Shown here: positions 3,423 through 28,150 of the stretch, in pieces
How the letters are laid out: each line of letters starts with the position of its first letter
Numbering within the stretch: position 1 is the stretch's first letter
Assembly: GCF_005696695.1 (NCBI RefSeq)
Contig: NZ_CP040006.1
Location: 510,001-542,000, forward strand
From: Schaalia odontolytica
GTDB taxonomy: Bacteria; Actinomycetota; Actinomycetes; Actinomycetales; Actinomycetaceae
Direction of reading: 5' to 3'
DNA length: 32,000 nt
Notes under the pieces: generated by a model
The model's input: the letters and a program-made list of their open reading frames with translations, nothing else
Told to the model about the DNA's origin: nothing
Databases searched by the model: none
Program-made: the position numbers and the translations under genes

Positions 3423-3515
3423 TTCTTACCCATTCAATTCACCCATCGTGGACCGACGTCGGTTCACGCACACCAAGGGCGGGAATGACCCCGCCACCCC
3501 ACGAAAGGAAAACCA

Positions 3516-9096: not shown

Positions 9097-9528
9097 ATGC
9101 TCTATGGACCTATGACGCACCCGCAGTTCCTGCGTGCGCTCGCGGCCGCCGGCCACGGCTCGAAGATTCTGCTGGCGGATGCGAACTACCCGCACACGAC
9201 GGGTGTGAACCCGCGCTGCGAACTCATTTCGCTCAACCTTGCCCCGGGTCTCCTGGATGTCAGCCAGGTCCTTGACGTCCTCAAGCGCACGATTCCGATC
9301 GAGCGCGCCGAGATCATGACCCCCGCCCCCGACGCCGATCCGGTCGAGATCCCGATCCACGACGAGTTCCGCGCTGCTCTGCCCGGCGTGGAGTTCGGCG
9401 AAATTTCCCGCTGGGACTTCTACGATGCCGCACGCGACGAGAACGTCGGCATCATCGTTGCGACGGGCGAGCAGCGCCTGTACGGCAACCTGCTCCTGAC
9501 GGTCGGCGTGCGCCAGCCCGGGGAGTAA
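9097..9528 (+). CDS. fucU: L-fucose mutarotase (RbsD/FucU family)
   Basis: 143 aa from the ATG at 9097. Aligns with E. coli FucU as I remember it: P-L-ALA--GHG--I---DA-FP ... IV-TGE-R-YGN-LL--GV. Confidence 0.85.
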   Translation: MLYGPMTHPQFLRALAAAGHGSKILLADANYPHTTGVNPRCELISLNLAPGLLDVSQVLDVLKRTIPIERAEIMTPAPDADPVEIPIHDEFRAALPGVEFGEISRWDFYDAARDENVGIIVATGEQRLYGNLLLTVGVRQPGE

Positions 9529-9637
9529 AACCTGTTTGCCGCCCCAGGGCGTGCCTTGTTGCATCGGTGACGAACGCTTTCGTTTCGTTTTCGTTTCAAC
9601 TGGATGGTGACTCCGGGGTGGAGACGACAGTTTCATA

Positions 9638-9671
9638 GCTGGTGGGTGGCTCGAGCGAGCTGCCCACCAGC
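9638..9671 (+). terminator. Candidate hairpin downstream of fucU
   Basis: 9-bp stem GCTGGTGGG / CCCACCAGC with a 16-nt loop that contains the palindrome GCTCGAGC. No U-tract. Confidence 0.3.
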
Positions 9672-9773
9672 GCGTTTATCCTTGCAATATCGTCGAATAA
9701 TGAAGAATGGACAGCGTTGCCCTGAACGTTTGTGCGCCCCGCGTGCACCTGCGTGAATCTTCTTCTCGTGATG

Positions 9774-9802
9774 TTGCATACTTTCGTTTTAGTGACTATT
9801 CT
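9774..9802 (+). promoter_or_regulatory. Sigma-70-like promoter for the DeoR-E2-E3-E1 operon
   Basis: TTGCAT (9774-9779), 17-nt spacer, TATTCT (9797-9802). Lies in an unusually AT-rich 330-bp intergenic region, about 60 nt upstream of the DeoR ATG. Confidence 0.5.
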
Positions 9803-9816
9803 TTTCTTAACGAAAG
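9781..9816. promoter_or_regulatory. Candidate operator: inverted repeat CTTTCGTT / AACGAAAG spanning the promoter spacer and -10 element
   Basis: 8-bp perfect inverted repeat (9781-9788 and 9809-9816). The same CTTTCGTT core is tandemly reiterated at 9577-9598. Confidence 0.4.
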
Positions 9817-9860
9817 GGAAAGCGACAAAGAAAGTCGCTGATTCTGTAAAGAGGTGCCCC

Positions 9861-10610
9861 ATGGGACGTGCAGAAGAACGCACGAACTACATCCTGGATC
9901 GCCTCGCCCGGGAGGGTGAGGTGAGCGTCGCGCAGCTTGCCTCCGATCTGGGAGTTTCGCCCGTCACCGTGCGCGCGTCGCTCAAGTCTCTCGACGAGCA
10001 GGGCTACCTCGTGCGCACCCACGGAGGAGCCCGTCCCACCACCTTCCGCAACATTCACCTGCGTCAGAACGATCGTGTTGAGATCAAGGAGCGCATCGCT
10101 CGTGCCGCCGCCGACATGATCCACGACGACGATCGCATCATGATCGAGGCCGGCACCACCTGCGCCCTCATCGTCAAGTACCTCACCGGCAAGCGTGGGG
10201 TTCAGGTTCTCACCAACTCCGTGCTCGTCTTTGCTAACGCCCGCTCCAACCCGAACCTGAACATCACGCTGACGGGTGGGCACTTCCGCGCCGAGTCCGA
10301 GTCCCTCGTGGGGCCGGTCGCCGAGCGCGCCATTAATGACTTCAACGCTCGCGTCGCGTTCCTCGGGACCGACGGGTTCAGCGTTGATCGGGGTCTGACC
10401 ACCCAGCTCGTAGAAGGTGGACAGGTCGGCTCCATTATGCGTACCCGCGCACAAGAGACGTGGCTGCTCGCTGACTCCTCCAAGTATGGGGAAGCCGGCT
10501 TTGTCAGCTTCATGGGGATCGACGAGGTCACCGGAATCATCACCGACGATGAGATCCCCGAAGAATCCATCAAGGAATTGGCCGAGCGCACGAAGCTGCG
10601 CATCGTCTAG
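9861..10610 (+). CDS. DeoR-family transcriptional regulator (sugar-phosphate-sensing type)
   Basis: 249 aa from the ATG at 9861 (RBS AAAGAGG). HTH_DeoR segment ILDRLAREGEVSVAQLASDLGVSPVTVRASLKSLDEQGYLVRTHGGA, followed by a DeoR C-terminal sensor domain. Confidence 0.9.
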   Translation: MGRAEERTNYILDRLAREGEVSVAQLASDLGVSPVTVRASLKSLDEQGYLVRTHGGARPTTFRNIHLRQNDRVEIKERIARAAADMIHDDDRIMIEAGTTCALIVKYLTGKRGVQVLTNSVLVFANARSNPNLNITLTGGHFRAESESLVGPVAERAINDFNARVAFLGTDGFSVDRGLTTQLVEGGQVGSIMRTRAQETWLLADSSKYGEAGFVSFMGIDEVTGIITDDEIPEESIKELAERTKLRIV

Positions 10611-10620
10611 GAGGAATTAC

Positions 10621-11964
10621 ATGGCCACCATCGTGGTGATGCCCCAGCTGGGCAACTCTGTTGAGTCATGCATCATCGTCGAGTGGATGATCGCAGAAGG
10701 CGACACCGTCTCCGTCGACCAGACGCTCGCGTCCATCGAGACCGACAAGTCGACCATGGAGGTGCCCTCGACCGCCGAGGGTACCGTCCTGAAGCTCCTG
10801 TGGGAGGAAGGCGACGAGGTCCCCGTGAAGGATCCGCTCATCATCGTCGGTGAGCCCGGAGAGGATATCTCCGGCCTCGTTCCCGGTGGCGACGCTGCCC
10901 CCGCCGAAGCCGACGCTCCCGCCGAGCAGGCCGCCGCTGCCCCCGAGGCTGCCGCTCCCGCCTTCGCGACCGAGCGCGCCACCGGCGCCGTCTCCCCGCG
11001 CGCCCGCGCCCTCGCCGCTTCGAACGGCGTCGACGCTTCCGCTATCGCCGAGGGCTCCGGCCCCCACGGCCGCGTCATCGAGCGTGACGTCGCCGCCGCG
11101 ATCGCCGCCGGCCCCGTCCTGACCTCCGCCGCGCGCGCCGCCGGTGTGAGCGCCGCCGAAGGCACCGGCATCGGTGGACGTGTGTCCGTCGCCGACGCCG
11201 GCCGCACCGCCGAGGCCGCGCCCGCCGCCGCTGTCGCCGCCCCCGCCGCGGCCGCCGACTTCCCCGGTGCCTCGACCTCCGCCCCGCTCAAGGGCGTGCG
11301 CAAGGTCGTCGCCAAGCGCATGATGGAGTCCCTGACCTCCACCGCCCAGCTGACCCTCAACACGACGGCCAACGCCGCCGGCATCCTCGCGATGCGCAAG
11401 AAGGTCAAGAACGCCGACGAGGCCCTGGGCCTGAACAAGATCACGCTCAACGACCTGGTCTGCTTCGCGGTGTCGCGCACCCTGCTCAAGTATCCCGTGT
11501 TCAACGCTCACCTGGAGGACGGCGTCCTCACCGAGTTCGAGCAGGTCCACCTCGGCTTCGCGTGCGACACCCCGCGCGGCCTCCTCGTCCCCGTCATCCG
11601 CTCCGCGCAGGCCCTGGGCCTCAAGGCGTTCTCCGACGAGGCCAAGCGCCTTGCCGGCGGCGCGATCGACGGCTCCCTGTCGCCCGACTTCCTGAGCGGC
11701 GGCACCTTCACGGTCTCCAACATCGGTTCCTTCGGTATCGAGACCTTCACCCCCGTCATCAACCTGCCCCAGACGGCCATCCTGGGCGTTGGCGCGATCA
11801 CCCCGCGCCCGACCGTGGCCGGAGACGGCTCGATCGGCGTCGAGCAGCGCCTCAACCTGTCGCTGACGATCGACCACCAGGTCATCGACGGCGCGGACGG
11901 CGCTCGCTTCCTGCGCGACCTGGTTGCCGCCATCGAAAACATCGACGTGACCGTTCTGGCCTGA
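10621..11964 (+). CDS. Dihydrolipoamide acyltransferase (E2) of a 2-oxoacid/acetoin dehydrogenase-type complex
   Basis: 447 aa. Strong RBS TAGGAGGAATTAC. One lipoyl domain (IETDKS), Ala/Pro linkers, an E3-binding domain (SPRARALAASNGVDASAIAEGSGPHGRVIERDV) and a catalytic domain with DHQVIDG. Confidence 0.9.
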   Translation: MATIVVMPQLGNSVESCIIVEWMIAEGDTVSVDQTLASIETDKSTMEVPSTAEGTVLKLLWEEGDEVPVKDPLIIVGEPGEDISGLVPGGDAAPAEADAPAEQAAAAPEAAAPAFATERATGAVSPRARALAASNGVDASAIAEGSGPHGRVIERDVAAAIAAGPVLTSAARAAGVSAAEGTGIGGRVSVADAGRTAEAAPAAAVAAPAAAADFPGASTSAPLKGVRKVVAKRMMESLTSTAQLTLNTTANAAGILAMRKKVKNADEALGLNKITLNDLVCFAVSRTLLKYPVFNAHLEDGVLTEFEQVHLGFACDTPRGLLVPVIRSAQALGLKAFSDEAKRLAGGAIDGSLSPDFLSGGTFTVSNIGSFGIETFTPVINLPQTAILGVGAITPRPTVAGDGSIGVEQRLNLSLTIDHQVIDGADGARFLRDLVAAIENIDVTVLA

Positions 11965-11980
11965 GGAAAGAGGAATACTC

Positions 11981-13348
11981 ATGAGTGACACGCATTTTGA
12001 CGTCATCGTCCTCGGTGCGGGCCCCGGCGGCTACCTGGCCGCCGAGCGCCTCGGACACGCGGGCAAGAAGGTCGCCCTCGTTGAGGAGCAGTACCTGGGC
12101 GGCACCTGCCTGAACGTGGGCTGCATCCCCACCAAGACCCTGCTCAACGGCGCGAAGAACTACCTGCACGCCAAGGAAGCCAGCCAGTTCGGCGTGGACG
12201 CCCAGGGCGTTGCCGTCAACTGGACGCAGATGCAGGCCTGGAAGGATCAGGTCGTCAAGGGCCTGGTCGCCGGCGTCGCAGCCACCGAGCGCAAGGCGGG
12301 CGTGACCGTCATCAATGGACGAGGCCACCTCGACGCCCCCGGTCGCGTGACCGTCGAGGGCACGACCTACACCTCGGATCACGTCATCATCGCGACGGGC
12401 TCCGTGCCGGCCATGCCCCCGCTGCCCGGCACCCAGGACAACCCCGCGCTGGTCGACTCCACGGGCATCCTCTCGCTGCCCGAGGTCCCGGCTCGCCTCG
12501 CGATCATCGGCGGCGGCGTCATCGGCGTCGAGTTCGCCTCCCTGTACTCCACCCTCGGCTCCCAGGTGACCGTCATCGAGATGGCCCCCGAGATCCTGCC
12601 CTTCATGGACGATGACCTGGCCGCCAAGGCCCGCGCCGCCATGAAGGACGTGACCTTCGAGCTGGGCTGCCGCGTCGAGTCCCTCGACGGAGGCACCGTC
12701 CACTACTCCAAGGGCGAGGAGAAGCTGAGCGTCGAGGCCGACGTGGTCCTCATGGCCGTTGGCCGCCGTCCCGCGACGGTGGGCTGGGGCGCCGAAGAGG
12801 CCGGCCTCGAGATCAACCGCGGCATCGTCGTCGACGACACGATGCGCACCAACCTGCCCAACGTGTGGGCCATTGGTGACGTCACCGGACGTTCCCTCCT
12901 GGCGCACGCTGCATACCGCATGGCGGAGATCGCCTCGGCGAACATCCTCGACCCCTCCGCGAAGAAGCGCGGCGAGGTCATGCGCTGGCACACCGTCCCG
13001 TGGGCCGTCTTCTCGATCCCCGAGGCCGCCGGCGTTGGTCTGACCGAGTCCGCCGCCAAGCGCGAAGGCCGCGAGGTCCTCGTTGCCAAGGTGCCCGCCC
13101 TCATGTCCGGCCGCTTCATCGCGGAGAACGGCTTCAAGGCCCCCGGCGAGGCGAAGATCCTCGTCGATCCGAAGACCCACCAGGTGCTGGGCATCCACGT
13201 CCTGGGTGCGTACGCCGCCGAGATGATCTGGGGCGCTCAGGCCGTCCTTGAGATGGAACTGACCGTCGAGGACCTGCGCCAGGTCGTCTTCCCGCACCCC
13301 ACGGTCTCCGAGGTCATCCGCGAAGCCGCGTGGGCCGTCAAGCTCTAA
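11981..13348 (+). CDS. lpd: Dihydrolipoyl dehydrogenase (E3)
   Basis: 455 aa. FAD motif GAGPGGY, redox disulfide GGTCLNVGCIPTK, second dinucleotide fold IIGGGVIGVE, C-terminal HPTVSE. Confidence 0.92.
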   Translation: MSDTHFDVIVLGAGPGGYLAAERLGHAGKKVALVEEQYLGGTCLNVGCIPTKTLLNGAKNYLHAKEASQFGVDAQGVAVNWTQMQAWKDQVVKGLVAGVAATERKAGVTVINGRGHLDAPGRVTVEGTTYTSDHVIIATGSVPAMPPLPGTQDNPALVDSTGILSLPEVPARLAIIGGGVIGVEFASLYSTLGSQVTVIEMAPEILPFMDDDLAAKARAAMKDVTFELGCRVESLDGGTVHYSKGEEKLSVEADVVLMAVGRRPATVGWGAEEAGLEINRGIVVDDTMRTNLPNVWAIGDVTGRSLLAHAAYRMAEIASANILDPSAKKRGEVMRWHTVPWAVFSIPEAAGVGLTESAAKREGREVLVAKVPALMSGRFIAENGFKAPGEAKILVDPKTHQVLGIHVLGAYAAEMIWGAQAVLEMELTVEDLRQVVFPHPTVSEVIREAAWAVKL

Positions 13349-13381
13349 CGAACATCCCCTACGTCAAGGAAGAGTAGAAAA

Positions 13382-15835
13382 ATGACTCAGTCTCTTATCA
13401 TCGACCCCAATGAGGTGCGTCGCCCCGGGTACGTGAAGTTCCCCGAGGTCCCCGTCAACCAGTACACCTTCGACCGTGACACCGAGATCGCCCGCTACGG
13501 CGAAAAGGGCATGGTCCAGATGCTCCACGACATGATCGTCGTGCGCACCTTCGAGTCGATGCTGGACTCCATCAAGAAGACCGGCGCCTGGGAAGGCGTC
13601 GAGTACAACCACCCCGGCCCCGCCCACCTGGGCATCGGCCAGGAGAGCGCCTACGTCGGCCAGAGCTTCGTGCTGTCGCCCGATGACTTCATCTTCGGCT
13701 CGCACCGCTCTCACGGCGAGATCCTCGCCAAGTGCTACTCGGCCATGCACCAGATGGACGAGAGCCAGCTCGAGGGCATCATGAAGGGCTTCCTCGGCGG
13801 CGAGACCCTGTCCTACGCCGAGAAGATCGACTACAAGGACACGAAGGACCTCACCGAGAACTTCATCCTCTTCGGCGCCCTCGCCGAAATCTTCGCCCGC
13901 AAGTCCGGCTTCAACCGCGGCCTGGGCGGCTCGATGCACACCTTCTTCCTGCCCTTCGGCTCCTACCCGAACAACGCGATTGTCGGTGGCTCCGCCCCCG
14001 TCGCCAACGGTGCGGCCCTCTTCAAGCGCATCAACCGCAAGCCCGGCATCGTCATCTCCAACGTCGGTGACGCCGCCCTGGCCTGTGGCCCCGTGTGGGA
14101 GGCCATGAACTTCGCGGCCATGGACCAGTTCCGCTCGCTGTGGCGCGAGGAGGACGGTGGCAACCCGCCGATCCTGTTCAACTTCTTCAACAACTTCTAC
14201 GGCATGGGCGGCCAGACCTTCGGCGAGACCATGGGCTACGAGATCCTCGCCCGCGTGGGCGCGGCCCTCAACCCCGAGGCCATGCACGCCGAGCGCGTCG
14301 ACGGCCTCAACCCGCTGGCCGTCGCGGATGCGACCACCCGCAAGAAGAAGATCCTCGAGGAGGGCCGCGGCCCCGTCCTCATGGACACCATCACCTACCG
14401 CTTCTCCGGCCACTCGCCGTCGGACGCCTCCTCGTACCGCACGAAGGAAGAGGTCGAGCTGTGGGAGCAGGTGGACTGCATCAAGGAGTACAGCAACCTG
14501 CTCATCTCCAACGGCCTGACCACGCAGGACGAGATCGACGGCTACACGGCCTCGCTGACCGAGAAGCTCGTCAAGGTCCTCAAGCTCTCGATCGACGACG
14601 AGACCACCCCGCGTGTTGCCGACGGCTACATCGACTCCGTCATGTTCTCCAACGAGAAGGTCGAGGCCTTCGACGACGCGACCCCCGAGATCGACCTCGA
14701 GGACAACCCGCGCGTCAAGGCGCTGGCCAAGAAGGTGCGTACCTCCGTCGACGAGAACGGCAAGCCCGTCTCCAAGATGCGCATGTACCAGTTCCGTGAC
14801 GGCCTGTTCGAGGCCATGCTGCACCGCTTCAAGACCGACCCGACGATGGCCGCTTGGGGCGAGGAAAACCGCGACTGGGGCGGCGCCTTCGCCGTCTACC
14901 GTGGCCTGACCGAGGCCCTGCCTTACCGTCGCCTGTTCAACTCGCCCATCGCCGAGGCCTCGATCGTGGGCGCCGGCGTCGGCTACGCGATGGCCGGTGG
15001 CCGCGCGGTCGTCGAACTCATGTACTGCGACTTCCTGGGCCGCTCCGGTGACGAGGTCTTCAACCAGATGGCCAAGTGGCAGTCGATGAGCGCTGGCCTG
15101 CTCAAGATGCCTCTCGTCCTGCGCGTGTCCGTGGGTGCGAAGTACGGCGCTCAGCACTCCCAGGACTGGAGCGCGCTCGTCGCTCACATCCCGGGCCTGA
15201 AGGTCTACTTCCCGACCACCCCGACCGACGCCAAGGGCATGCTCAACCTGGCACTCGCCGGAACCGACCCGGTCGTGTTCCTCGAAAGCCAGAAGCTCTA
15301 CGACAAGGGCGAGGACTTCGAGCCCGGCGGCGTGCCCGAGGGCTACTACGAGACCGAAGAGGGCGAGCCGGCGATCCGCCGCGAGGGCACCGACATCACG
15401 ATCGCTGCATACGGCGCGACCGTGTACAAGGCCCTCGAGGCCGCGGACGTCCTGGCTGAGAAGTACGGCCTGAGCGCCGAGGTCATCGACCTGCGCTTCG
15501 TCGCCCCGCTCAACTACGACAAGCTCATTGCCTCCGTGAAGAAGACCGGTCGCCTGGTCCTCACCTCGGACGCCGTCGAGCGTGGCTCCTTCCTCAACAC
15601 GGTCGCCGCCAACGTGCAGACCCTGGCCTTCGACGCGCTCGACGCGCCGATCGCCGTCGTCGCCTCGCGCAACGGCATCACGCCCGGACCCGAGATGGAG
15701 TCGTACTTCTTCCCGCAGGTCTCCTGGATCCTCGACGCGATTCACGAGCGCATCCTCCCGCTGCCCGGCCACGTGCCCACCACGAAGCACGCGACCGAGG
15801 CCGAGATCGCGCGCCTGAACCGCGCGGGACTCTGA
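13382..15835 (+). CDS. Fused thiamine-diphosphate-dependent dehydrogenase E1 component (alpha + beta in one 817-aa chain)
   Basis: The N-terminal half carries E1-alpha features (SHRSHGE; TPP motif GDAALACGP...NFFNNFYGM). The C-terminal half carries E1-beta features ([42 protein letters not shown], transketolase C-terminal-like end). RBS AAGGAAGAG. Confidence 0.9.
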
Positions 15836-15841
15836 GGCGCT

Positions 15842-15875
15842 GGGGGCGGGCCGTTCCCCTTTCCGGCCCGCCCCC
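15842..15875 (+). terminator. GC hairpin 7 nt after the E1 stop (candidate terminator or attenuator)
   Basis: Perfect 12-bp stem GGGGGCGGGCCG / CGGCCCGCCCCC with a 10-nt loop. No clear U-tract. Confidence 0.45.
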
Positions 15876-15906
15876 GTCCTTGGCTCGCATTCCCTGACGC
15901 GAGCCC

Positions 15907-15950
15907 GCGAGGCCGGGGCTACACTCCTCCTCACCGTGCCCCGGCCTCGC
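15907..15950. repeat. GAGGCCGGGG / CCCCGGCCTC inverted-repeat element (long-loop form)
   Basis: 12-bp arms GCGAGGCCGGGG and CCCCGGCCTCGC separated by 20 nt. Member of the recurring motif family described in the findings. Confidence 0.6.
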
Positions 15951-15994
15951 CCACATACTTGTTTCAATACCGTTTTTCTCCACCCAACGAAGAG

Positions 15995-17314
15995 ATGGCA
16001 GAACCCATGGACATCACCAACGACCCGGCCGCAACCCCGGCCCAGCGCATCGAGGCGCTGCGCGCCGGCGTGGCCGACGAGCACTTCCCCAGCTGGGTGC
16101 CCGAGTCGAACAACCACATCCACACGTGCTTCTCGTTCAGCCCCTACACGCCCACGCACGCCGCCCTGCTGGCGCGCCGCAACGGCCTGCGCGTCGTCGG
16201 CTCGGTCGACCACGACTCGATCGGCGCCGCCGCTGAGATGAGCGAGGCGACCCGCATCCTGGGCATGGGTTCCGTCACCGGCTTCGAGATCCGCGCCCGC
16301 TTCGGCGAAGGAACGCCGCTCGCGCAGCGCAAGCTCAACAACCCCGATTCCGAGGGCGTCGCCTACATGACGGTCCAGGGCGTGCCCGCTCCGGCCCGCG
16401 AAAAGGTCGCCGAGTGGCTCGCCCCCAAGCGCGCCGCCCGCCTCGAGCGCACCCTCGCCATGGCCGAGAGCGCCAACAAGATCCTCACCGACCTGGGCCT
16501 GGAACCCTTTGACCCGCAGGCCGACATGGTCGGCATCTCCCAGTACGCCAATGGGGGCGGGATCACCGAGCGTCACCTGCTGGCCGCCATGGCCTCGGCC
16601 CTCATCCGTGGTTTCGGCGGCGGTCCCGCCCTGGTCCAGGGTCTGGACTCGATGGGCGTTGAGATTCCCGAGTCCCTCGCGCGCGTCCTGTCCGACGCCG
16701 ACAACCCGCACCTCATGTACGACCTGCTGGGCGTCCTGAAGGCCAACTACCTGGATCGCATCTACATCCAGCCCACCGACGAGCTGCCGAGCGCGGCCGA
16801 GGTCGTTGAGTTCGCCGACTCGGTCGGTGCGATCGCCACTTACGCCTACCTGGGCGACGTGTCAGCCTCGCCGACCGGCGACAAGAAGGCCGAGAAGTTC
16901 GAGGACGACTTCCTCGATGAGCTCTTCGAGCACATGGAGTCGATCGGCCTGCGCGCCGTCACCTACATGCCCCCGCGTAACACCCCCGAGCAGCTCGAGC
17001 GCATCCACGCGCTCGCGGCCGCCCACGGCATGCTCGAAATCTCGGGCGTGGACATCAACCAGCCCCGCCAGCGCTTCACCTGCGAGGAACTGCGCCGCCC
17101 CGAGTTCGCGGACCTCAACGAGGCCACGTGGGCCCTCGTTGCGCACGAGGCCCTGTCCTCCGTGGACCCCTCGCTGCACCTGCTGGGCCGCACGGGTCGC
17201 CTGACCCCCGAGGCCCTCGCCGAGCGCATCAGCCAGTACGCACCCCTGGGGCGCGCGATTGCCGACGGCGAGGACGCCGCCGCTGTTGCCGCCCGAGCCA
17301 CATCGATTAACTGA
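15995..17314 (+). CDS. PHP-domain (polymerase/histidinol-phosphatase fold) metal-dependent phosphoesterase, substrate unknown
   Basis: About 439 aa. N-terminal NNHIHTCFSFSPY...GSVDHDS is the PHP HxH...D signature. The start is uncertain (ATG 15995 or 16007; the ORF-track start at 15959 has no RBS). Confidence 0.7.
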   Translation: MAEPMDITNDPAATPAQRIEALRAGVADEHFPSWVPESNNHIHTCFSFSPYTPTHAALLARRNGLRVVGSVDHDSIGAAAEMSEATRILGMGSVTGFEIRARFGEGTPLAQRKLNNPDSEGVAYMTVQGVPAPAREKVAEWLAPKRAARLERTLAMAESANKILTDLGLEPFDPQADMVGISQYANGGGITERHLLAAMASALIRGFGGGPALVQGLDSMGVEIPESLARVLSDADNPHLMYDLLGVLKANYLDRIYIQPTDELPSAAEVVEFADSVGAIATYAYLGDVSASPTGDKKAEKFEDDFLDELFEHMESIGLRAVTYMPPRNTPEQLERIHALAAAHGMLEISGVDINQPRQRFTCEELRRPEFADLNEATWALVAHEALSSVDPSLHLLGRTGRLTPEALAERISQYAPLGRAIADGEDAAAVAARATSIN

Positions 17315-17341
17315 CGAGTATCGTCAAGAAAGAGAGACATC

Positions 17342-18364
17342 ATGAGTAACGCTCCCGAGGTACGCGGGCTCTTCCTCAAGGCCCTCGGCCGCCCGGTTAT
17401 CGTGGCCCCCAGCTCGGCGGAGCCGACCGTCACCTTCGACGGCCCGCTCACCGAGGTGTGCCCCTGCTCCCTGAAGGAGACGGAGCTTCCCGTCGTCGTG
17501 CGCGCCGGCGAGGAGACCTTCGAGGTCCGCGCCACCGCCACGGGTGAGCGCGCCATCAACGGCCGCGTCGCCCTCGTCACGGGTGGTGCCCAGGGCTTCG
17601 GTGCGGAGATCGCGCGCGGTCTGGTGGACGCCGGCTGCTTCGTGTACGTCGCCGACCTGAACGGCGAGGGTGCGGCAGCCAAGGCGGCCGAACTCGGCGG
17701 TGAAGGCGTTGCCCACCCGATCACGGTCAACGTCGCCGACGAGGAATCCGTCGCCGCGATGGCCTCCGAGATTGAGCGCGTCACCGGCGGCCTTGACCTG
17801 GTCGTCTCCAACGCGGGCATCGTGCGCGCGGGCTCGGTCCTCGAGCAGGACGCCTCGGCGTTCCGCCTGTCCACCGACATCAACTACGTGGCCTTCTTCC
17901 TGGTCACCAAGCACCTGGGCCAGCTCCTGGCTCGCCAGCACTCGACCGCCCCCGAGTGGCTGACCGACATCATCCAGATCAACTCCAAGTCCGGCCTCGT
18001 CGGCTCGAACAAGAACGCCGCCTACGCGGGCTCGAAGTTCGGCGGTATCGGCCTGGTCCAGTCCTTCGCCCTCGAGATGGTTGCTCACGGCGTGAAGGTC
18101 AACGCGATCTGCCCCGGCAACTTCTACGACGGCCCGCTCTGGTCCGACCCGGACCGCGGCCTCTTCGTCCAGTACCTGAACTCCGGCAAGGTGCCCGGCG
18201 CCAAGACGGTTGCCGACGTCAAGGAGTTCTACGAGGCGAAGGTCCCCATGCGCCGTGGCGCCCAGGGCATCGACGTTCTGCGTGCGATCTTCTACATCGT
18301 CGAGCAGGAATACGAGACCGGCCAGGCCGTGCCCGTCACGGGCGGCCAGGTGATGCTCTCCTGA
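17342..18364 (+). CDS. Short-chain dehydrogenase closely resembling sorbitol-6-phosphate 2-dehydrogenase (SrlD/GutD), with a ~70-aa N-terminal extension
   Basis: 340 aa. RBS AAGAAAGAGAG. Motifs VTGGAQGFG, NAG, IIQINSKSGLVGSNKNAAYAGSKFGGIGLVQSFALE and a VTGGQVM end match SrlD as I remember it nearly block for block. Confidence 0.85.
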   Translation: MSNAPEVRGLFLKALGRPVIVAPSSAEPTVTFDGPLTEVCPCSLKETELPVVVRAGEETFEVRATATGERAINGRVALVTGGAQGFGAEIARGLVDAGCFVYVADLNGEGAAAKAAELGGEGVAHPITVNVADEESVAAMASEIERVTGGLDLVVSNAGIVRAGSVLEQDASAFRLSTDINYVAFFLVTKHLGQLLARQHSTAPEWLTDIIQINSKSGLVGSNKNAAYAGSKFGGIGLVQSFALEMVAHGVKVNAICPGNFYDGPLWSDPDRGLFVQYLNSGKVPGAKTVADVKEFYEAKVPMRRGAQGIDVLRAIFYIVEQEYETGQAVPVTGGQVMLS

Positions 18365-18371
18365 CAGTGTC

Positions 18372-18419
18372 ACGAGGCCGGGGACACATGCGGGTTTCTC
18401 CGGAGCTCCCCGGCCTCGT
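18372..18419 (+). terminator. GAGGCCGGGG / CCCCGGCCTC inverted-repeat element after the SDR gene (candidate terminator or stabiliser)
   Basis: Perfect 13-bp arms ACGAGGCCGGGGA / TCCCCGGCCTCGT with a 22-nt loop, followed by CCTTTCTTCCC. Confidence 0.5.
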
Positions 18420-18464
18420 CCTTTCTTCCCACGTCCAGTAGTTTTTCCAGTGAAAGAGTCAGTC

Positions 18465-20066
18465 ATGACCCAGATTCCCGCCACTCAGTACGCGATTCAG
18501 ATCGTCGGCAAGGAAGAGTTCGTCGTTAACCCGGCGAAGCCCGTTGACCCCGTTGGCCCGACGCAGATCATGCTCGAGGTCGAAGCCTGCGGCATTTGCT
18601 TCTCTGATACGAAGCTGCTCCACCAGTTTGATGGCCACCCGCGCAAGTCGGACGTGGTGGCGGGTATCGACCTGGATGCTCTCAAGGACATTCCGTCCTA
18701 CCACCCGAACCAGGAGGCCGTGACGCCCGGCCACGAGCCCGTCGTCCGCGTCGTGCAGGTCGGCGAGAAGGTCACGCACTTCAAGGTCGGCGACCGCCTG
18801 CTGGTCCAGGCTGACTGGAAGCACCTGCGTACCGCAAAGTCGAACGGTGCCTTCGGCTACAACTTCGACGGCGCCCTCGAGGAGTTCGTTGTCGTCGACG
18901 AGCGCTGCGTCGTGTCCCCGGAGGGCGAAGAGTTCCTCATCCACGTGTCGGAGGGCCCGTCGGCCGCGGCAGTCGGCCTCATCGAGCCCTGGGCGACCGT
19001 TGAGGGCTCCTACGCGTGGGCCGAGCGCAACCACGTCGCCGACGGTGGCCGCCTGCTGGTCGTTGGCGAGGGCGATATCGACGCCCTGACCGCCGAGCAC
19101 AAGCCCGCCGAGGTCGTGCGCGTTGCCGCTGACGCCATCGAGGGCGTCGAGGGAGAGTTTGACGACATCGTGTTCTTCGGCGCGGACGCCGACGCGATCG
19201 AGAAGGCTGCGCTCCTGATCGGTACCCGCGGCACCATGTGTGTCGTCCTGGGCGGCGAGAAGATCTCGCGCAAGGTGTCCCTGGACATCGGCCGCGTCCA
19301 CTACGACTTCACCCGCTTCTGCGGCACGACCGGCTCGGATCCGCGCGAGGGCTACGCCTGGATCCCCGCCAACGGCGACCTGCGCGAGAACGACAAGTGT
19401 GTCTTCGTCGGCGCCGCTGGCCCGATGGGTGTCATGCACACGATGCGCGCCGTTACCTCGGGTGTTCCCGGCCTCAGCGTCGTTGGCACGGACCTGTCGG
19501 ACGAGCGCCTGGCCAACCTGACGAAGGTTGTCGGCCCGACCGCCGAGAAGAACGGCGTGCCGCTGGACATCGTCAACACCTCCTCGACGCCCCTGGAGTA
19601 CGGCTACACCTACGCGACGTGCCTCGTGCCCGTCCCGGCGCTGGTCTCCCAGGCTGTCGACCTGCTGGCCGAGGGCGGCATCCTGAACGCGTTCGCCGGT
19701 ATCCCGGCCGGCACCTTCGGCGACTTCGACCTGCAGGGCATCATCGAACGCCGGATCTTCATGCTGGGCACCTCCGGCTCGGACGTCTCCGACATGCGCA
19801 CGGTCCTGCGCAAGATCGAAGCCGGCATTATCGACACCACGATCTCCCTGTGGGCGATCACCGGCATGGCGGGCTTTGGCGACGCCATCAACGCGGTGAT
19901 GGACCGTACCTCGGGCGGCAAGATCATGGTCTTCCCGATGATGCACGACCTGGGCCTGACCCCCGTGTCCGAGCTCGCCGAGAAGCTGCCGACGGTCGCC
20001 GCGAAGCTTGACGCCGCCGGCCTGTGGACCAAGGAGGCCGAGGAGGCGCTGCTCGCCACCCGCTGA
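18465..20066 (+). CDS. Zinc-type medium-chain dehydrogenase/reductase (MDR), oversized; possibly of the ketose-1-phosphate reductase (SorE-like) branch
   Basis: 533 aa from the ATG at 18465 (RBS GAAAGAG; the GTG at 18450 is less likely). Has ADH_N features EACGICFSD and PGHEP, with no structural-zinc Cys cluster. Rossmann motif VFVGAAGPMG appears only at residue ~314. The C-terminal pattern LNAFAGIP...GTSGS...DM...GGKIMVFP resembles SorE from memory. Confidence 0.75.
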   Translation: MTQIPATQYAIQIVGKEEFVVNPAKPVDPVGPTQIMLEVEACGICFSDTKLLHQFDGHPRKSDVVAGIDLDALKDIPSYHPNQEAVTPGHEPVVRVVQVGEKVTHFKVGDRLLVQADWKHLRTAKSNGAFGYNFDGALEEFVVVDERCVVSPEGEEFLIHVSEGPSAAAVGLIEPWATVEGSYAWAERNHVADGGRLLVVGEGDIDALTAEHKPAEVVRVAADAIEGVEGEFDDIVFFGADADAIEKAALLIGTRGTMCVVLGGEKISRKVSLDIGRVHYDFTRFCGTTGSDPREGYAWIPANGDLRENDKCVFVGAAGPMGVMHTMRAVTSGVPGLSVVGTDLSDERLANLTKVVGPTAEKNGVPLDIVNTSSTPLEYGYTYATCLVPVPALVSQAVDLLAEGGILNAFAGIPAGTFGDFDLQGIIERRIFMLGTSGSDVSDMRTVLRKIEAGIIDTTISLWAITGMAGFGDAINAVMDRTSGGKIMVFPMMHDLGLTPVSELAEKLPTVAAKLDAAGLWTKEAEEALLATR

Positions 20067-20085: not shown

Positions 20086-20122
20086 GCCCCGGCCTCGTCT
20101 GTCACTCGGACGAGGCCGGGGC
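20086..20122 (+). terminator. Intrinsic terminator (short-loop form of the CCCCGGCCTC / GAGGCCGGGG element)
   Basis: Perfect 14-bp stem GCCCCGGCCTCGTC / GACGAGGCCGGGGC with a 9-nt loop and a T-rich tail CTTCTTTCTCT, 20 nt after the MDR stop. Confidence 0.7.
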
Positions 20123-20180: not shown

Positions 20181-21008
20181 ATGACGGTCAACGATCACGC
20201 CTCGCAGGAGCGTTACGTGGCGTTGCAGGCATGGCTGTGCGGGCAGATGTCCCCGCGTGCGCCTCACGCGGCGGACCTCTTTGCGCAGGACAGGGAGTGC
20301 CTCTACGATGCCTTCCTGTCCGTGCTCATTGGCACGGGGCTGGGATTCATCGCCTACGACGACATCCGCTTCCACCACGGCCTCTACGCCTTCGACTTTT
20401 TCGTGGGCGACGTCCACGCGCCACCCCGGCGTGGGGGAGCGGACGGGCCGGGGGAGTCCCGCGCGGCAGGGCAGCTCTCCCCGGCGGTCGCCACCCCGGC
20501 GATGTGCCACGCGATTGTCGACACGTGGCTCGGTGACGTGGGCAGGCACATCCACTTCGTGGCATCTGTGATTGCCTCCGTGGCCACCCTCGAGCTCGTC
20601 GCCGACGTGAGCGTCGACGAGTGTGTCTTTGAGTGTGACCTGCCGCCGGGCTACGCCTGCTCCACCGCAAACAAACCGTGGGAAGACGGCAGCCTGCCAA
20701 TTGGCGCGCTCGATTCATCTCTGGTGGTCCCCGGTCCTCTCATTCACCTCGAGGCGCGCCCGCGCTACAAGGGACAGGCCCTGTCCCCCTTGGGCTTTAC
20801 CGAGGCCTTGGCATCGGCCGTGCAGATGGGGCTCTCCGTGGAGTCGTCCTCTGCGTTCGCCTTCGGGGCCGCCGCCACTCTGCGCGCCCCGCACGGGGGC
20901 CCTGAGATGCTCGGGTGGGCTGCCGACGCAGTGGCTCGCGCCCTGTCCGCGTGCGGGTACACCGGGGTAGTGCAGATCCGAGCGCGCTTCGCTCACGCGC
21001 CGGCGTAG
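20181..21008 (+). CDS. Hypothetical protein, no recognisable domain
   Basis: 275 aa. Strong RBS GAGGAGG 5 nt before the ATG. Third-codon positions are GC-rich. Bounded by terminator hairpins on both sides. Confidence 0.5.
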   Translation: MTVNDHASQERYVALQAWLCGQMSPRAPHAADLFAQDRECLYDAFLSVLIGTGLGFIAYDDIRFHHGLYAFDFFVGDVHAPPRRGGADGPGESRAAGQLSPAVATPAMCHAIVDTWLGDVGRHIHFVASVIASVATLELVADVSVDECVFECDLPPGYACSTANKPWEDGSLPIGALDSSLVVPGPLIHLEARPRYKGQALSPLGFTEALASAVQMGLSVESSSAFAFGAAATLRAPHGGPEMLGWAADAVARALSACGYTGVVQIRARFAHAPA

Positions 21009-21040: not shown

Positions 21041-21074
21041 GCCCCGGCCTCGTCCGTTGAGACGAGGCCGGGGC
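21041..21074. terminator. Bidirectional terminator between convergent genes (CCCCGGCCTC / GAGGCCGGGG element)
   Basis: Perfect 14-bp stem GCCCCGGCCTCGTC / GACGAGGCCGGGGC with a 6-nt loop, between the stops at 21008 (+) and 21097 (-). Confidence 0.7.
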
Positions 21075-22566: not shown

Positions 22567-22625
22567 CGTTGTTCCTAGCGTTGATGGATGTTCGTGGACA
22601 CGGCAAGGCCGCGCTGATGGTCCCG

Positions 22626-22655
22626 AGTATAGCCCGTCGGTCAACGAAAGGTAAA
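22626..22655 (-). promoter_or_regulatory. Candidate promoter of the symporter gene
   Basis: On the minus strand: TTTACC (22655-22650), 18-nt spacer, TATACT (22631-22626). About 60 nt upstream of the ATG. Confidence 0.35.
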
Positions 22656-22919: not shown

Positions 22920-23170
22920 TTTCCTTGTTGCGCCGAACGGCAGCGAACGAAGCGAAAAGCTCGAGTCGCGGAAACATGGCGCGGAACACCTTTCGAAAAC
23001 ATGCGAGATATTCGTGTGCGCTTGATCGTGTGGGTGTTGTTTGTGAACTCGATAGTGTGTTTGTTTGTTTTTTATGCCTGTTTTTTGTTTTTGAGTGTTT
23101 TTGGTTGGGATTGCTGGCTGGCCTTTTTTGGTTGGTTGGTTTTTCTGGGCTTTAACGTTTTTGTTTTTGT

Positions 23171-28150
<4,980 letters not shown>

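Follow-up and report, generated by a model that had tools for sequence, protein, structure and literature searches.

A conserved seven-gene block beside the L-fucose genes of Schaalia odontolytica: a candidate keto-transposing route for 6-deoxy-ketohexose phosphates

Described counterparts for the chemistry considered here are the L-sorbose-1-phosphate reductase SorE and the sorbitol-6-phosphate dehydrogenase SrlD of the sor pathway, together with acetoin dehydrogenase, whose E1 acts on acetoin. With regard to L-fucose itself, Ravcheev and Thiele (2017; PMC5583593) found FucA missing in 23 genomes and listed this as an unresolved problem. Table S3 of that survey records no FucA in the genome of either A. 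odontolytica ATCC 17982 or Actinomyces sp. HPA0247; for ATCC 17982, this supplies the genome-wide search for fucA that an earlier note on this DNA had proposed.

The window, that is, the whole stretch of 32,000 nucleotides analysed, comes from Schaalia odontolytica, an oral and gut bacterium. It contains at 9861-20066 a block of seven co-directional genes, located directly 3' of an ABC transporter-FucI-kinase-LacI-FucU cluster:

904-4580, + strand: sugar ABC transporter (ATPase 904-2421, permease 2418-3422, binding protein 3516-4580; NCBIfam)
4770-6533, + strand: L-fucose isomerase FucI (NF008220, 1015.9 bits, cutoff 775; TIGR01089, 945.5 bits, cutoff 850)
6704-8113, + strand: RhaB-like FGGY kinase, presumed L-fuculose 1-kinase (TIGR02627 rhamnulokinase, 346 bits, cutoff 528)
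8088-9083, + strand: LacI-family regulator of fuc genes (NF007075, 192.6 bits, cutoff 340)
9097-9528, + strand: RbsD/FucU-family mutarotase (NF011949 L-fucose mutarotase, 43 bits, cutoff 141)
9575-9821, no strand: AT-rich spacer with four TTTCGTTT boxes (9578, 9583, 9589, 9782) and an inverted partner at 9809-9821
9861-10610, + strand: DeoR-family regulator of the sugar-phosphate-sensing type (Pfam HTH_DeoR and DeoRC)
10621-11964, + strand: E2 dihydrolipoyl acyltransferase (Pfam Biotin_lipoyl, E3_binding and 2-oxoacid_dh)
11981-13348, + strand: E3 dihydrolipoyl dehydrogenase (TIGR01350, 466.8 bits, cutoff 408.8)
13382-15835, + strand: TPP-dependent fused E1 alpha+beta, 817 aa (Pfam E1_dh, Transket_pyr and Transketolase_C)
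15907-15950, no strand: REP-like hairpin (GCGAGGCCGGGGC ... GCCCCGGCCTCGC) within the E1-PHP spacer
16007-17314, + strand: PHP-fold protein, 435 aa, of the COG0613 type with insertion domain (PDB 3e0f profile match, AlphaFold model, Foldseek)
17342-18364, + strand: SDR related to sorbitol-6-phosphate 2-dehydrogenase, with an N-terminal extension of about 70 aa (NF009050, PDB 5o3z)
18372-18419, no strand: REP-like hairpin within the SDR-MDR spacer
18465-20066, + strand: SorE-related MDR, 533 aa from ATG 18465 or 538 aa from GTG 18450
20086-20122, + strand: intrinsic terminator, a 16-bp stem followed by a T-run, directly 3' of the MDR stop, ending the operon

Only E3 and FucI passed the curated equivalog cutoffs, every other family match among these genes being below. 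As the earlier note had described, the seven genes lie on the + strand, the first four being separated by 10, 16 and 33 nt and each start being preceded by a purine-rich Shine-Dalgarno sequence; the remaining gaps measure 171, 27 and 100 nt. With a ribosome binding site for each gene, no long-stem terminator-like site inside the block and a strong terminator after the MDR gene, the block is a real operon. The spacer at 9575-9821 may hold a promoter and a DeoR operator: TTTCGTTT has four exact matches, all within this spacer, against 0.38 expected, a count that was reached in 0 of 100 shuffles. In the upstream cluster, the ABC transporter, with matches of the RbsA/XylG/AraG, AraH/RbsC and AlsB/RbsB types (all below equivalog cutoffs), is predicted to be a fucose importer, and the same system in Actinomyces was predicted to be a fucose-specific ABC transporter (PMC5583593); a candidate operator palindrome, GTTAGCGTTAAC, is located at 834-845, upstream of its genes. 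The kinase scored 76.7 bits against the E. coli FucK model (cutoff 470.9) and is assigned as a fuculokinase because it adjoins FucI. The start of the LacI gene, as read from the sequence, overlaps the 3' end of the kinase gene, and the mutarotase orthologue in L097, a distant Actinomycetaceae MAG, has Pfam RbsD_FucU.

The catalytic motifs of the block (TPP, lipoyl-lysine, E2 histidine, E3 disulfide, SDR and MDR) are intact. E2 consists of a single lipoyl domain with the lipoyl-lysine motif ETDKS, an E3-binding domain and a catalytic core with DHQVIDG; E3 carries the redox disulfide CLNVGC and a C-terminal HP..SE motif, the fused E1 the TPP motif GDAA...NN, and the SDR the motifs TGGAQGFG, NAG and YAGSK. 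The previously claimed block-for-block match of the SDR to SrlD holds, its residues 75-338 aligning to positions 3-258 of the 259 in the sorbitol-6-phosphate dehydrogenase model NF009050 (206 bits, equivalog cutoff 307). Its best PDB match is the Erwinia sorbitol-6-phosphate dehydrogenase 5o3z (2e-43; next match, 2.6e-26), and it scored 136 bits against the SDR domain of RhaEW. In the MDR, Pfam detected ADH_N, with ADH_zinc_N below cutoff; residues 97-152 contain no Cys cluster, so that the structural-zinc lobe is indeed lacking. At about residues 190-300 it contains an additional, degenerate Rossmann-like insert; residues 190-292 and 306-420 align by BLASTP to one common SorE region, and the orthologue in L097 has 420 aa only. 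The likeness of its C-terminus to SorE, which the earlier note had pointed out, was borne out: a tblastn search of plasmids with the C-terminal half matched only YggP/SorE-type proteins, and BLASTP against SorE of the Serratia sor operon gave 27% identity over residues 306-530, C-terminal tail included. On a Deinococcus plasmid, an SDR and an FGGY kinase share one operon with a long MDR of 30% identity over the full length. Judged by sequence, MDR and SDR together match the sor-type keto-transposition pair, by homology to SorE and SrlD, respectively, beyond mere resemblance.

The complete seven-gene set was found in 40 of the 80 species-level loci, in the same order in 38, and conservation of the block spans Actinomycetaceae and Propionibacteriaceae at 46-100% identity. 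The DeoR gene lies directly 5' of E2-E3-E1 in all arrangements seen; in some Tessaracoccus species the MDR gene is located elsewhere, with its own SorC regulator. A FucU, FucI or FucK-like gene accompanies 32 of the 49 species-level loci with E1/E2, and this association, as the earlier note would have it, is kept through three different rearrangements, with the fuc cluster after the block (L063) or before a reshuffled block (L066 and L069). FucI-FucK-LacI-FucU also lie directly 5' of the block in L097, whose PHP protein shows 59% identity, and in a second clade the block occurs in linkage with RhaB-like kinases. Moreover, fructose-6-phosphate aldolase genes are found inside the rearranged clusters L066 and L069 (293 bits, cutoff 214), and weaker ones adjoin L075 and L077. 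This enzyme accepts hydroxyacetone as a donor substrate and serves in the synthesis of 1-deoxysugars (PMC7767278), so that the embedded genes fit a 1-deoxy-ketose-6-phosphate intermediate.

Homologues of the fused E1 (52% identity) occur in Rhizobium pRL8, Agrobacterium pAt15955, Pleomorphomonas, Bradyrhizobium, Leptothrix and Kaistia, those of the first three being full-length and located in sugar clusters. Each of these six Proteobacteria loci also encodes a lipoyl protein together with an alpha/beta-hydrolase of the AcoC type; a SorC sugar-binding regulator is present in five, none being called in the Bradyrhizobium locus. They are often adjoined by PfkB or XylB kinases and sugar ABC transporters, other frequent neighbours being a psicose-3-epimerase-like gene, a mannitol-dehydrogenase-family gene and lipA. 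The next-nearest split E1s likewise have a SorC regulator nearby, along with a transporter of the PTS or ABC type. By these neighbourhoods, the fused-E1 family is tied to sugar genes in other phyla.

In the following scheme, we infer all substrates and products as well as the sequence of steps. The block would be a catabolic module for phosphorylated 6-deoxy-ketohexoses, here L-fuculose-1-phosphate, replacing the missing class II aldolase, a proposal for and against which we consider the chances to be even. L-fuculose-1-phosphate would be supplied by the adjoining FucI and kinase. The SorE-like MDR would reduce its C2 keto group to give L-fucitol-1-phosphate (equal to 1-deoxy-D-galactitol-6-phosphate), and the SrlD-like SDR would re-oxidise the penultimate carbon, at the methyl end, to 1-deoxy-D-tagatose-6-phosphate, a methyl ketol (CH3-CO-CHOH-). 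The fused E1 would bind this ketol through TPP and cleave C2-C3, much as the acetoin dehydrogenase E1 does with acetoin; the hydroxyethyl-TPP would be oxidised onto the E2 lipoyl arm to yield acetyl-CoA, the lipoamide being regenerated by E3 with NAD+. The tetrose-4-phosphate co-product proposed earlier is retained, and stereochemical derivation gives D-threose-4-phosphate (or L-erythrose-4-phosphate), not D-erythrose-4-phosphate, so that a further isomerase would be needed before the pentose-phosphate pathway. The DeoR protein would regulate the operon by sensing a sugar phosphate.

The absence of an aldolase from the fuc cluster was confirmed, no Aldolase_II domain being found in the whole window or in any FucI-containing locus among L001-L096. 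Relatives with an aldolase count against the scheme: in L097 a 215-aa Aldolase_II gene is convergent to the MDR gene, and a RhaEW-type Aldolase_II-SDR fusion adjoins the MDR in six loci (L072, L073, L077, L079, L080 and L083). In one clade of relatives (L073 and L079) the fusion co-occurs with the E1/E2/E3 complex, and in organisms of this type an aldolase route may operate in parallel with the complex or upstream of it. Also counted against the catabolic module proposed here are that D-threose-4-phosphate is not a central metabolite, that in about ten species neither fuc nor kinase genes lie within 4-10 kb of the block, that the MDR gene lies apart from it in some Tessaracoccus species, that family matches other than those of E3 and FucI fall short of the equivalog cutoffs, and that the PHP protein has no place in the scheme despite being encoded by one of the most tightly linked genes of the block. 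The assignment of the latter as a PHP protein stands on the 3e0f profile match and on a confident AlphaFold model (pLDDT 90.6) with the COG0613 PHP phosphoesterases 3o0f, 2yb1 and 9etk as best Foldseek matches, Pfam giving no match for the window protein; its likely start is 16007, homologues beginning at the same Met. That it is a simple phosphatase is doubtful: conservation extends to HxH, DHD, E and D349 but not to the Asp that follows HxH or to the final His, both of which are replaced; two of the three ligands of the third metal appear to be lost; and in Bowdeniella (L076/L078) a translational fusion joins the protein to the SDR. It would act close to the SDR step, a phosphatase or a metal-dependent isomerase being possible roles. 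As to the regulator, whose best NCBIfam matches are AgaR, GlpR and SrlR (152-170 bits, all below cutoffs), it is not an orthologue of the E. coli FucR named in the earlier note (69.7 bits against a cutoff of 259).

A literature search found no paper on the seven-gene cluster. The cluster is real, and probably represents a new pathway variant. If the scheme is true, it would mean an undescribed way of digesting fucose, in which the keto group is moved along the sugar and acetyl-CoA is then cut off by a pyruvate-dehydrogenase-like complex.

The window has a GC content of ca. 65% and contains the following features.

Features of the window
904-4580, plus strand: Rbs-type sugar ABC transporter
4770-6533, plus strand: FucI (NF008220, 1015.9 bits against a cutoff of 775)
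6704-8113, plus strand: RhaB-like FGGY kinase
8088-9083, plus strand: LacI regulator
9097-9528, plus strand: FucU mutarotase
between FucU and DeoR: AT-rich spacer of 332 nt, separating the fuc cluster from the seven-gene block
9861-20066, plus strand: seven-gene block (DeoR, E2, E3, fused E1, PHP, SDR, MDR)
21097-22644, minus strand: AgcS-type sodium:alanine symporter (flanking gene)
23168-28397, plus strand: complete 16S-23S-5S rRNA operon (flanking)
29322-31115, minus strand: protein O-mannosyltransferase of the PMT family (flanking gene)

The organization of the block as seven co-directional genes, described in the earlier note, was confirmed. All seven are present on the plus strand with the domains and motifs ascribed to them, the first four are tightly spaced (gaps of 10, 16 and 33 nt), every gene is preceded by a Shine-Dalgarno sequence, and the sole strong terminator (20086-20122) is found after the stop codon of the MDR gene. 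The regulator encoded by the first gene comprises HTH_DeoR and DeoRC domains; its identification as FucR was rejected (69.7 bits against a cutoff of 259). In the fuc cluster, the LacI gene starts 26 nt before the stop codon of the kinase gene, in another frame (8088-8113), which suggests translational coupling.

The fuc cluster and the block are apparently transcribed as two units, each under its own regulator. The near-palindrome GTTAGCGTTAAC (834-845), located ca. 60 nt upstream of the start of the ABC ATPase gene, is a candidate LacI operator for the fuc genes, and no LacI-type operator, as a sign of co-regulation with these genes, was found in the spacer preceding DeoR. Between positions 9575 and 9821 this spacer bears four exact TTTCGTTT boxes, three in overlapping tandem at 9578-9596 and one at 9782, as well as an inverted partner, AACGAAAGGGAA, at 9809-9821. 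The boxes are found nowhere else in the window (four seen against 0.38 expected) and are candidate DeoR operators. A REP-like GC-rich hairpin (GCCCCGGCCTCG ... CGAGGCCGGGGC) is repeated in intergenic spacers (15907-15950, 18372-18419, 20086-20122 and 21041-21074), with half sites at 4601, 6619 and 7360, and, if one mismatch is allowed, the 11-mer CGAGGCCGGGG is present in 22 copies (2.6 expected). Two of the hairpin copies are located within the operon, in the E1-PHP and SDR-MDR spacers, where they could be mRNA stabilisers or attenuators, and the copy after the MDR gene doubles as terminator. A 275-aa ORF with no family match (20181-21008) lies between near-identical inverted hairpins (20086-20122 and 21041-21074); its identity in close relatives, 71-90%, is far below that of the neighbouring genes (95-100%), and it may be a fast-evolving or non-coding insert.

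The earlier note had also remarked on the lack of an aldolase beside the fuc genes, and this observation stands: an Aldolase_II domain is missing from the window and from every FucI-containing locus of the relatives compared with it (L001-L096), and a published genome survey likewise found no FucA. Among the genomes of that survey, published by Ravcheev and Thiele in 2017, are those of A. odontolytica ATCC 17982 and Actinomyces sp. HPA0247; it reports FucA as not found genome-wide in the former (PMC5583593, Table S3), and names the missing FucA in 23 gut genomes, Actinomyces included, as an unresolved problem (PMC5583593). These organisms seem to possess the means for fucose release, uptake, isomerisation and phosphorylation but to lack the known one for cleaving fuculose-1-P, and the genes just downstream of the fuc cluster are obvious candidates for the cleavage step. 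As in the fucose pathway of E. coli (FucP/FucI/FucK/FucA/FucO, with FucR), FucI, a fuculokinase-type FGGY kinase and FucU are encoded side by side, and a DeoR-family regulator is present. The window differs from that system in lacking FucO and, like its FucI-containing relatives and the surveyed genome, FucA, as well as in having a kinase closer to RhaB; moreover, the cleavage proposed here would be oxidative and take place between C4 and C5, giving C2 plus C4 instead of two C3 units. In full-text searches of the literature, the cluster was found nowhere described, nor was a fused E1 reported for sugar catabolism, and nothing was found on how Schaalia, Arachnia or Tessaracoccus metabolise fucose.

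Pfam domains and motifs indicate that a TPP-dependent E1 (alpha plus beta), a lipoyl-bearing E2 and an E3 share one operon. The fused E1, of 817 aa, consists of E1_dh, Transket_pyr and Transketolase_C domains and contains the GDAA...NN TPP motif; the E2 has lipoyl, E3-binding and catalytic domains, with the ETDKS lipoyl-Lys and DHQVIDG motifs; and the E3, which contains the CLNVGC disulfide, passes the cutoff of TIGR01350 (466.8 bits against 408.8). E3 is common to all complexes of this kind and hence does not discriminate between them. The NCBIfam matches of the fused E1 were to PDH models only and were all below cutoff, both for the alpha half (TIGR03182, 177 bits against 393.85) and for the beta half (NF006667, 237.9 bits against 321), and the E2 also fell below its PDH cutoff (TIGR01349, 255.9 bits against 445). 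No acetoin-specific E1 model appeared among the curated-model matches of the fused E1, and the acetoin-E2 model (AcoC, NF011457) matched the lipoyl domain alone (64.5 bits against a cutoff of 307). Among solved structures the E1 beta half is closest to PDH E1 beta, in a PDB that holds no acetoin E1.

The complex is similar to acetoin dehydrogenase (AcoA/AcoB, AcoC, AcoL) in combining a TPP-dependent E1 alpha/beta with a lipoyl-E2 and an E3, and the reaction proposed for the block would have the same form, from CH3-CO-CHOH-R to acetyl-CoA plus R-CHO. It differs in that E1 alpha and beta form one chain, in that the E2 has a classical 2-oxoacid_dh core, in that the regulator is of the DeoR type (SorC in Proteobacteria) and not AcoR, and in the addition of the PHP protein, of SrlD-like and SorE-like enzymes and of a linkage to sugar kinases. 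In addition, curated models do not assign it to that system, and its substrate would be a sugar phosphate and not acetoin.

In the enterobacterial sor pathway, SorE reduces the C2 keto group of L-sorbose-1-P and an SrlD-type SDR re-oxidises the other end of the molecule, giving fructose-6-P. The likeness of the SDR of the block to SrlD, noticed earlier, was upheld by a full-length match to the sorbitol-6-phosphate dehydrogenase model (NF009050), whose 206 bits are below the equivalog cutoff of 307 although this is still the best family, and Erwinia SrlD (5o3z, 2e-43) is by far the best solved relative. The protein consists of an adh_short domain and a 70-aa extension, with no Aldolase_II domain. 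The MDR, as had been read from the sequence, lacks the structural-zinc lobe, the set of four Cys residues being missing, and the resemblance of its C-terminus to SorE was corroborated by both tblastn and BLASTP. In the plasmid collection searched by tblastn, its C-terminal half matched only YggP/SorE-type proteins. BLASTP against annotated Serratia SorE aligned residues 306-530 (27% identity, E 1e-14), including the distinctive tail (GLWTKEAEEALL vs GIWSAEAEQYLL), with 25% identity in the N-terminal domain; this alignment demonstrates homology but does not demonstrate orthology. Residues 190-292 aligned a second time to the Rossmann region of SorE already matched by the C-terminal half, so that the extra length of the protein corresponds to an internal degenerate duplication; the distant orthologue found in an Actinomycetaceae MAG (L097) has only 420 aa. 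The AlphaFold model of the MDR is of low quality (pLDDT 67.7, and under 50 in the N-terminal domain), and its Foldseek matches are generic MDRs.

The Serratia sor operon, which was retrieved for comparison, encodes SorC, an SDR, a PTS and SorE. It shares with the window, where homologues of both enzymes are found, the pairing of a ketose-1-P reductase of the MDR type with a hexitol-phosphate 2-dehydrogenase of the SDR type, which in the sor pathway shifts the keto group to the opposite end of the hexose. Regulators of the SorC type are also found beside the solo MDR of Tessaracoccus and with the proteobacterial fused E1. The differences are that the sugar would be phosphorylated in the window by an FGGY kinase and not by a PTS, that the identities are low (25-27% between the MDR and SorE, and 24% between the SDR and that of the Serratia sor operon), that the MDR carries an extra insert of ca. 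110 aa, and that a 6-deoxy sugar as substrate would render as product a 1-deoxy-ketose-6-P, unusable in glycolysis. The trio of the window, SDR, long MDR and FGGY kinase, is also found in a Deinococcus plasmid operon.

We propose that a kinase replaces the PTS and that the homologues of the sor pair act on L-fuculose-1-P, which would be converted to L-fucitol-1-P and then to 1-deoxy-D-tagatose-6-P; L-rhamnulose-1-P would be converted to 1-deoxy-D-sorbose-6-P by the same pair. Such a 1-deoxy-ketose-6-P would bear a CH3-CO-CHOH- group, of the type cleaved by acetoin-type E1, and its cleavage would yield acetyl-CoA and a tetrose-4-phosphate. As derived from Fischer projections, both deoxyhexoses would converge on one tetrose, which would be D-threose-4-P if the reduction is SorE-like or else L-erythrose-4-P, and not D-erythrose-4-P, so that an isomerisation step would still be needed; no phosphatase would be required. 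All the parts of the block belong to known superfamilies, and the logic joins sor-type keto transposition with acetoin-type cleavage. The chances of this mechanism being correct are, in our estimation, about even, and it is more likely than that that the block is a deoxyhexose or sugar-phosphate module with an E1 acting on a sugar-derived ketol. In the transketolase-dependent sulfoquinovose pathway (sulfo-TK), a TPP enzyme and not an aldolase cleaves a 6-deoxy-6-sulfo ketohexose by removing a C2 unit. The block would be similar in that a TPP enzyme would split a C6-modified ketohexose in place of an aldolase, and different in that in sulfo-TK the C2 unit from the keto end is passed to an acceptor aldose non-oxidatively, with no lipoyl-E2/E3 and no acetyl-CoA.

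A further hint is that genes for a fructose-6-phosphate aldolase-type enzyme (FSA; 293 bits against a cutoff of 214) are present inside the rearranged clusters of two Tessaracoccus loci (L069 and L066), with weaker FSA-like genes on the flanks of the module in L075 and L077. FSA takes hydroxyacetone as donor and makes 1-deoxysugars, and its physiological role has been called enigmatic (PMC7767278); it could cleave the same 1-deoxy-ketose-6-P non-oxidatively.

A scan of the MDR-family alignment against one genome per GTDB species rendered 173 relatives, of which the best 80 loci were kept, all of them from Actinomycetaceae or Propionibacteriaceae. Among these best 80 of 173, all seven genes are present in 40 loci, with the gene order of the window in 38 of the 40 (46-100% identity), and E1/E2 were seen in 49, with FucU, FucI or a FucK-like gene within the fetched span in 32 of the 49. 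The loci of S. odontolytica UMB0018, Actinomyces sp. HMSC035G02 and Pauljensenia sp. show 99% protein identity to the window. Two further records, NZ_JVKM01000028.1 (L001, 'Xylanimonas cellulosilytica strain 352_XCEL') and NZ_JVOJ01000059.1 (L013, 'Sanguibacter keddieii strain 250_SKED'), contain a locus with 97-100% protein identity to that of Schaalia odontolytica and are very probably mislabelled. The whole ABC-FucI-kinase-LacI-FucU cluster is located downstream of the block in Tessaracoccus antarcticus (L063). In T. oleiagri (L066) and Tessaracoccus sp. OH4464 (L069) the cluster comes before the block, whose genes are reshuffled; in the distant MAG (L097) the order is FucI-kinase-LacI-FucU-DeoR-E2-E3-E1-PHP-SDR-MDR, with a PHP protein only 59% identical. 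A second clade (Bowdeniella, Propionicimonas, Nigerium and related MAGs) has the module together with a different RhaB-like kinase and an Rbs-type transporter. The adjacency to fucI on which the earlier note was built is therefore found again in relatives, across rearrangements. In several Tessaracoccus species the MDR gene is found elsewhere, beside a gene for a SorC-type regulator, and DeoR-E2-E3-E1-PHP-SDR remain together. Several Propionibacteriaceae have methylmalonyl-CoA carboxyltransferase genes (5S, 12S and biotin carrier) after the block (L052/L099, 14210-20731; L085, 14326-18027); in L052/L099 an NMO-like gene and an Fe-ADH gene are also present, and the latter could encode a FucO-type lactaldehyde reductase.

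Outside these families, tblastn with the fused E1 identified full-length homologues on plasmids at 52% identity, and a protein search identified a large family in Hyphomicrobiales, Bradyrhizobium and Leptothrix. Six contexts were compared (Rhizobium pRL8, where L087 corresponds to region 85082-87547, Pleomorphomonas pSM30-1, Agrobacterium pAt15955, Bradyrhizobium, Leptothrix and Kaistia). In all six the fused E1 is followed by a lipoyl protein of ca. 78 aa and an alpha/beta-hydrolase, which is the AcoC-type E2 architecture, and in five of them a SorC regulator (PF04198, sugar-binding) comes next, none being called in the Bradyrhizobium locus (L090). Other neighbours include PfkB or XylB kinases, sugar ABC transporters, RbsD/FucU, a psicose-3-epimerase-like gene, a mannitol-dehydrogenase-family gene and lipA. 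The next-nearest homologues in the plasmid tblastn have split alpha and beta subunits (32-36% identity), accompanied by a PTS or sugar ABC transporter and a SorC regulator, and the nearest of these split forms are themselves unnamed, sugar-linked complexes. No aldolase or lactate enzymes were found in the fused-E1 and split-E1 contexts examined, which argues that the clade acts on sugar-derived phosphorylated ketols and not on pyruvate. The clade is large and apparently unstudied in Alpha- and Betaproteobacteria and Firmicutes (L087-L092, L095 and L096); a SorC regulator is present in seven of these eight loci, most of which also have sugar transporters or kinases nearby, and in the Brevibacillus and Sinorhizobium loci the split E1 is found with E2 and Lpd.

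It can also be the case that the same chemistry serves another substrate, such as a deoxy-polyol, L-ketohexose or tetrulose/pentulose phosphate, with the E1 cleaving another phosphorylated ketol or removing C2 from a normal ketose phosphate, and that the adjacency of the fuc genes reflects a shared sugar island. Consistent with this, ca. 10 species (Arachnia-like and others) hold the seven genes alone, away from any fuc genes; each of the two gene sets comes with a regulator of its own, LacI in the fuc cluster and DeoR in the block, which also has its own promoter spacer; the Bowdeniella-type clusters have no isomerase in the span examined; and the sugar and polyol genes of the proteobacterial fused-E1 clusters are varied (XylB, PfkB, the mannitol-dehydrogenase family, psicose-epimerase-like) and do not include FucI. 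However, the association of the block with FucI/FucU or a RhaB-like kinase recurs across two families and in four or more different gene orders, nothing else is known in A. odontolytica that would consume fuculose-1-P, and a methyl ketol, the type of substrate known for acetoin-type E1, would arise naturally, from established chemistry, only from a deoxy sugar. We consider another substrate unlikely, yet the strongest competitor of a pathway for fuculose-1-P.

The call of the fifth gene as a PHP phosphoesterase held only with respect to the fold. Neither Pfam nor NCBIfam gave a usable family (there was no Pfam hit), and tblastn against the plasmid collection rendered no match, but the profile of the protein family matches the PHP protein 3e0f, and the AlphaFold model, which is confident (pLDDT 90.6), matched COG0613 PHP phosphoesterases in Foldseek (3o0f, 2yb1 and 9etk; probability 1.00, E 1e-12 to 1e-9, TM-score 0.68-0.73 on target). 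Homologues number 4645 at E <= 0.001. As in the COG0613 proteins (Cv1693 3',5'-bisphosphonucleotide phosphatase, 2yb1; BAD_1165, 3o0f; RNase AM, 9etk), a (beta/alpha)7 PHP barrel with an insertion domain is predicted and, of the metal ligands, HxH, DH, E and D are conserved; the protein of the window is ca. 150 residues longer and belongs to a sugar operon, sometimes being fused to the SDR. It lacks the full trinuclear ligand set (HxH..D, DH, E, H, H, DxH): the Asp after HxH is replaced by Phe or Ser, and the final His of DxH by an invariant Asn351 ('GVDIN'), in 20 of 20 aligned family members. These two residues are third-metal ligands in PHP enzymes, so that the site is probably reduced to two metals, and the protein may not be a phosphatase, which makes that part of the call doubtful. 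A role as tetrose-phosphate isomerase, proof-reading phosphatase or even lyase is possible. The gene is linked to the block as tightly as any other gene. In Bowdeniella nasicola (L078, 7671-10004; L076, 7750-10005) the PHP-like domain and the SrlD-like SDR form one polypeptide of ca. 750-777 aa, and in the second clade a shorter paralogous type (395-420 aa, ca. 25% identity) occupies the same position; a 419-aa gene of L083 taken for rhamnose isomerase was rejected as such and encodes a short PHP-like protein.

Among the relatives L001-L096, Aldolase_II was found solely in L072, L073, L077, L079, L080 and L083, fused to an SDR. These fusions are RhaEW-like (285-297 bits against a cutoff of 568), and in L073, L079 and L083 they are true Aldolase_II-SDR fusions at the same place in the cluster. 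The E1/E2/E3 genes follow the fusion in L073 and L079, and the idea that complex and aldolase domain are mutually exclusive alternatives was rejected, as these two loci carry both. They could represent a parallel aldolase route, another role of the domain, or a complex acting downstream of lactaldehyde; that the domain is a 4-epimerase between rhamnulose-1-P and fuculose-1-P is chemically conceivable. In the L097 MAG, a second, GntR-controlled cluster of deoxysugar type (13932-17867), convergent to the MDR gene, has genes for a 215-aa Aldolase_II protein, an aldolase of the DeoC family, a cupin and a fusion of Aldolase_II with an SDR; next come those for an isomerase of the IF-2B family and an ABC transporter. 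RhaEW itself, described by Rodionova et al. in 2013, yields DHAP and L-lactate, and neither DHAP nor lactate was seen without NAD+ (PMC3870299); the order of reactions in this family may not be fully settled. The SDR of the window is in the same SDR neighbourhood (136 bits to the RhaW part), with an N-terminal extension that is the counterpart of the RhaEW linker region. It differs in having no aldolase domain and in scoring higher against SrlD than against RhaW, and in Bowdeniella the fusion partner is a PHP domain instead.

The simplest filling of the gap left by FucA would be that the PHP protein is a new metal-dependent fuculose-1-P/rhamnulose-1-P aldolase and the SDR a RhaW-type L-lactaldehyde dehydrogenase, with lactate being converted to pyruvate, the E1/E2/E3 acting as a dedicated PDH, and the MDR as a lactaldehyde/propanediol oxidoreductase. 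The Bowdeniella PHP-SDR fusion would then mirror the RhaE-RhaW (aldolase-SDR) fusion, whose products are known, and both the SDR score to RhaEW and the loss of third-metal ligands, as well as the nearness of the E1 beta half to PDH E1 beta, would fit. Nevertheless, the structurally closest PHP-fold relatives are all phosphoesterases or nucleases, we know of no PHP-fold aldolase, and in L073, L079 and L083 the short PHP protein is found together with an Aldolase_II domain. Furthermore, the block contains no lactate dehydrogenase, the PDH models score well under their cutoffs, and both the SorE homology of the MDR and the fused-E1 homologues found with sugar kinases, AcoC-type E2 and SorC, without aldolase or lactate enzymes, would be left unexplained, all of which makes an aldolase of this kind improbable. 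An ordinary acetoin/2,3-butanediol operon (AcoABCL with SDR- and MDR-type butanediol dehydrogenases) lying by chance beside the fucose genes would account for the E1/E2/E3 composition, for enzymes of two families in both of which butanediol dehydrogenases occur, and for the SDR matches to BudC-type models (ca. 100-107 bits) and the weak match of the MDR to (R,R)-butanediol dehydrogenase (6ie0), but it is very improbable given that the SDR score to sorbitol-6-P dehydrogenase (206 bits) is about double the 107 bits reached with BudC-type models, that SorE/YggP are the only clear MDR relatives in the plasmid tblastn, that the acetoin-E2 model reaches only the lipoyl domain, that the regulator is not AcoR, that the PHP protein is conserved and sometimes SDR-fused, and that the linkage of the block to sugar kinases and isomerases is recurrent.

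Taken as a whole, the keto-transposition reading comprises several propositions: that this is the first complex of the 2-oxoacid-dehydrogenase type (TPP/lipoyl/E3) with a natural sugar-phosphate substrate; that it provides a third route for L-fucose and 6-deoxyhexoses, to acetyl-CoA and a C4 phosphate after SorE/SrlD-type transposition, which would explain the use of fucose by Actinomyces/Schaalia and possibly by other FucA-less gut and oral bacteria; that the SorC- or DeoR-controlled E1 clade cleaves sugars or deoxysugars; and that the PHP partner has a non-phosphatase or otherwise new role. That all of them hold jointly seems to us somewhat less than an even prospect.

Fucose, once released from mucins and from glycans of the diet, is one of the major nutrients of oral and gut bacteria. 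The cluster offers a concrete and testable answer to the fuculose-phosphate aldolase gap in 23 gut genomes (PMC5583593). If the reading is true, fucose carbon would flow to acetyl-CoA (acetate plus ATP) and a C4 phosphate, and not to DHAP and lactaldehyde/propanediol, and the predicted fermentation products, cross-feeding and metabolic models would change for Actinomycetaceae and Propionibacteriaceae. Sugar phosphates would be added to the substrates of the pyruvate/acetoin-dehydrogenase superfamily, the metabolism of 1-deoxy-ketoses could turn out to be a natural role of FSA-type aldolases, and widespread unannotated E1 complexes, together with an uncharacterised PHP-fold family, would be flagged for study. 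If this is confirmed, fucose catabolism would have a third route, and a sugar phosphate would be, for the first time, the substrate of a lipoyl-dependent dehydrogenase complex.
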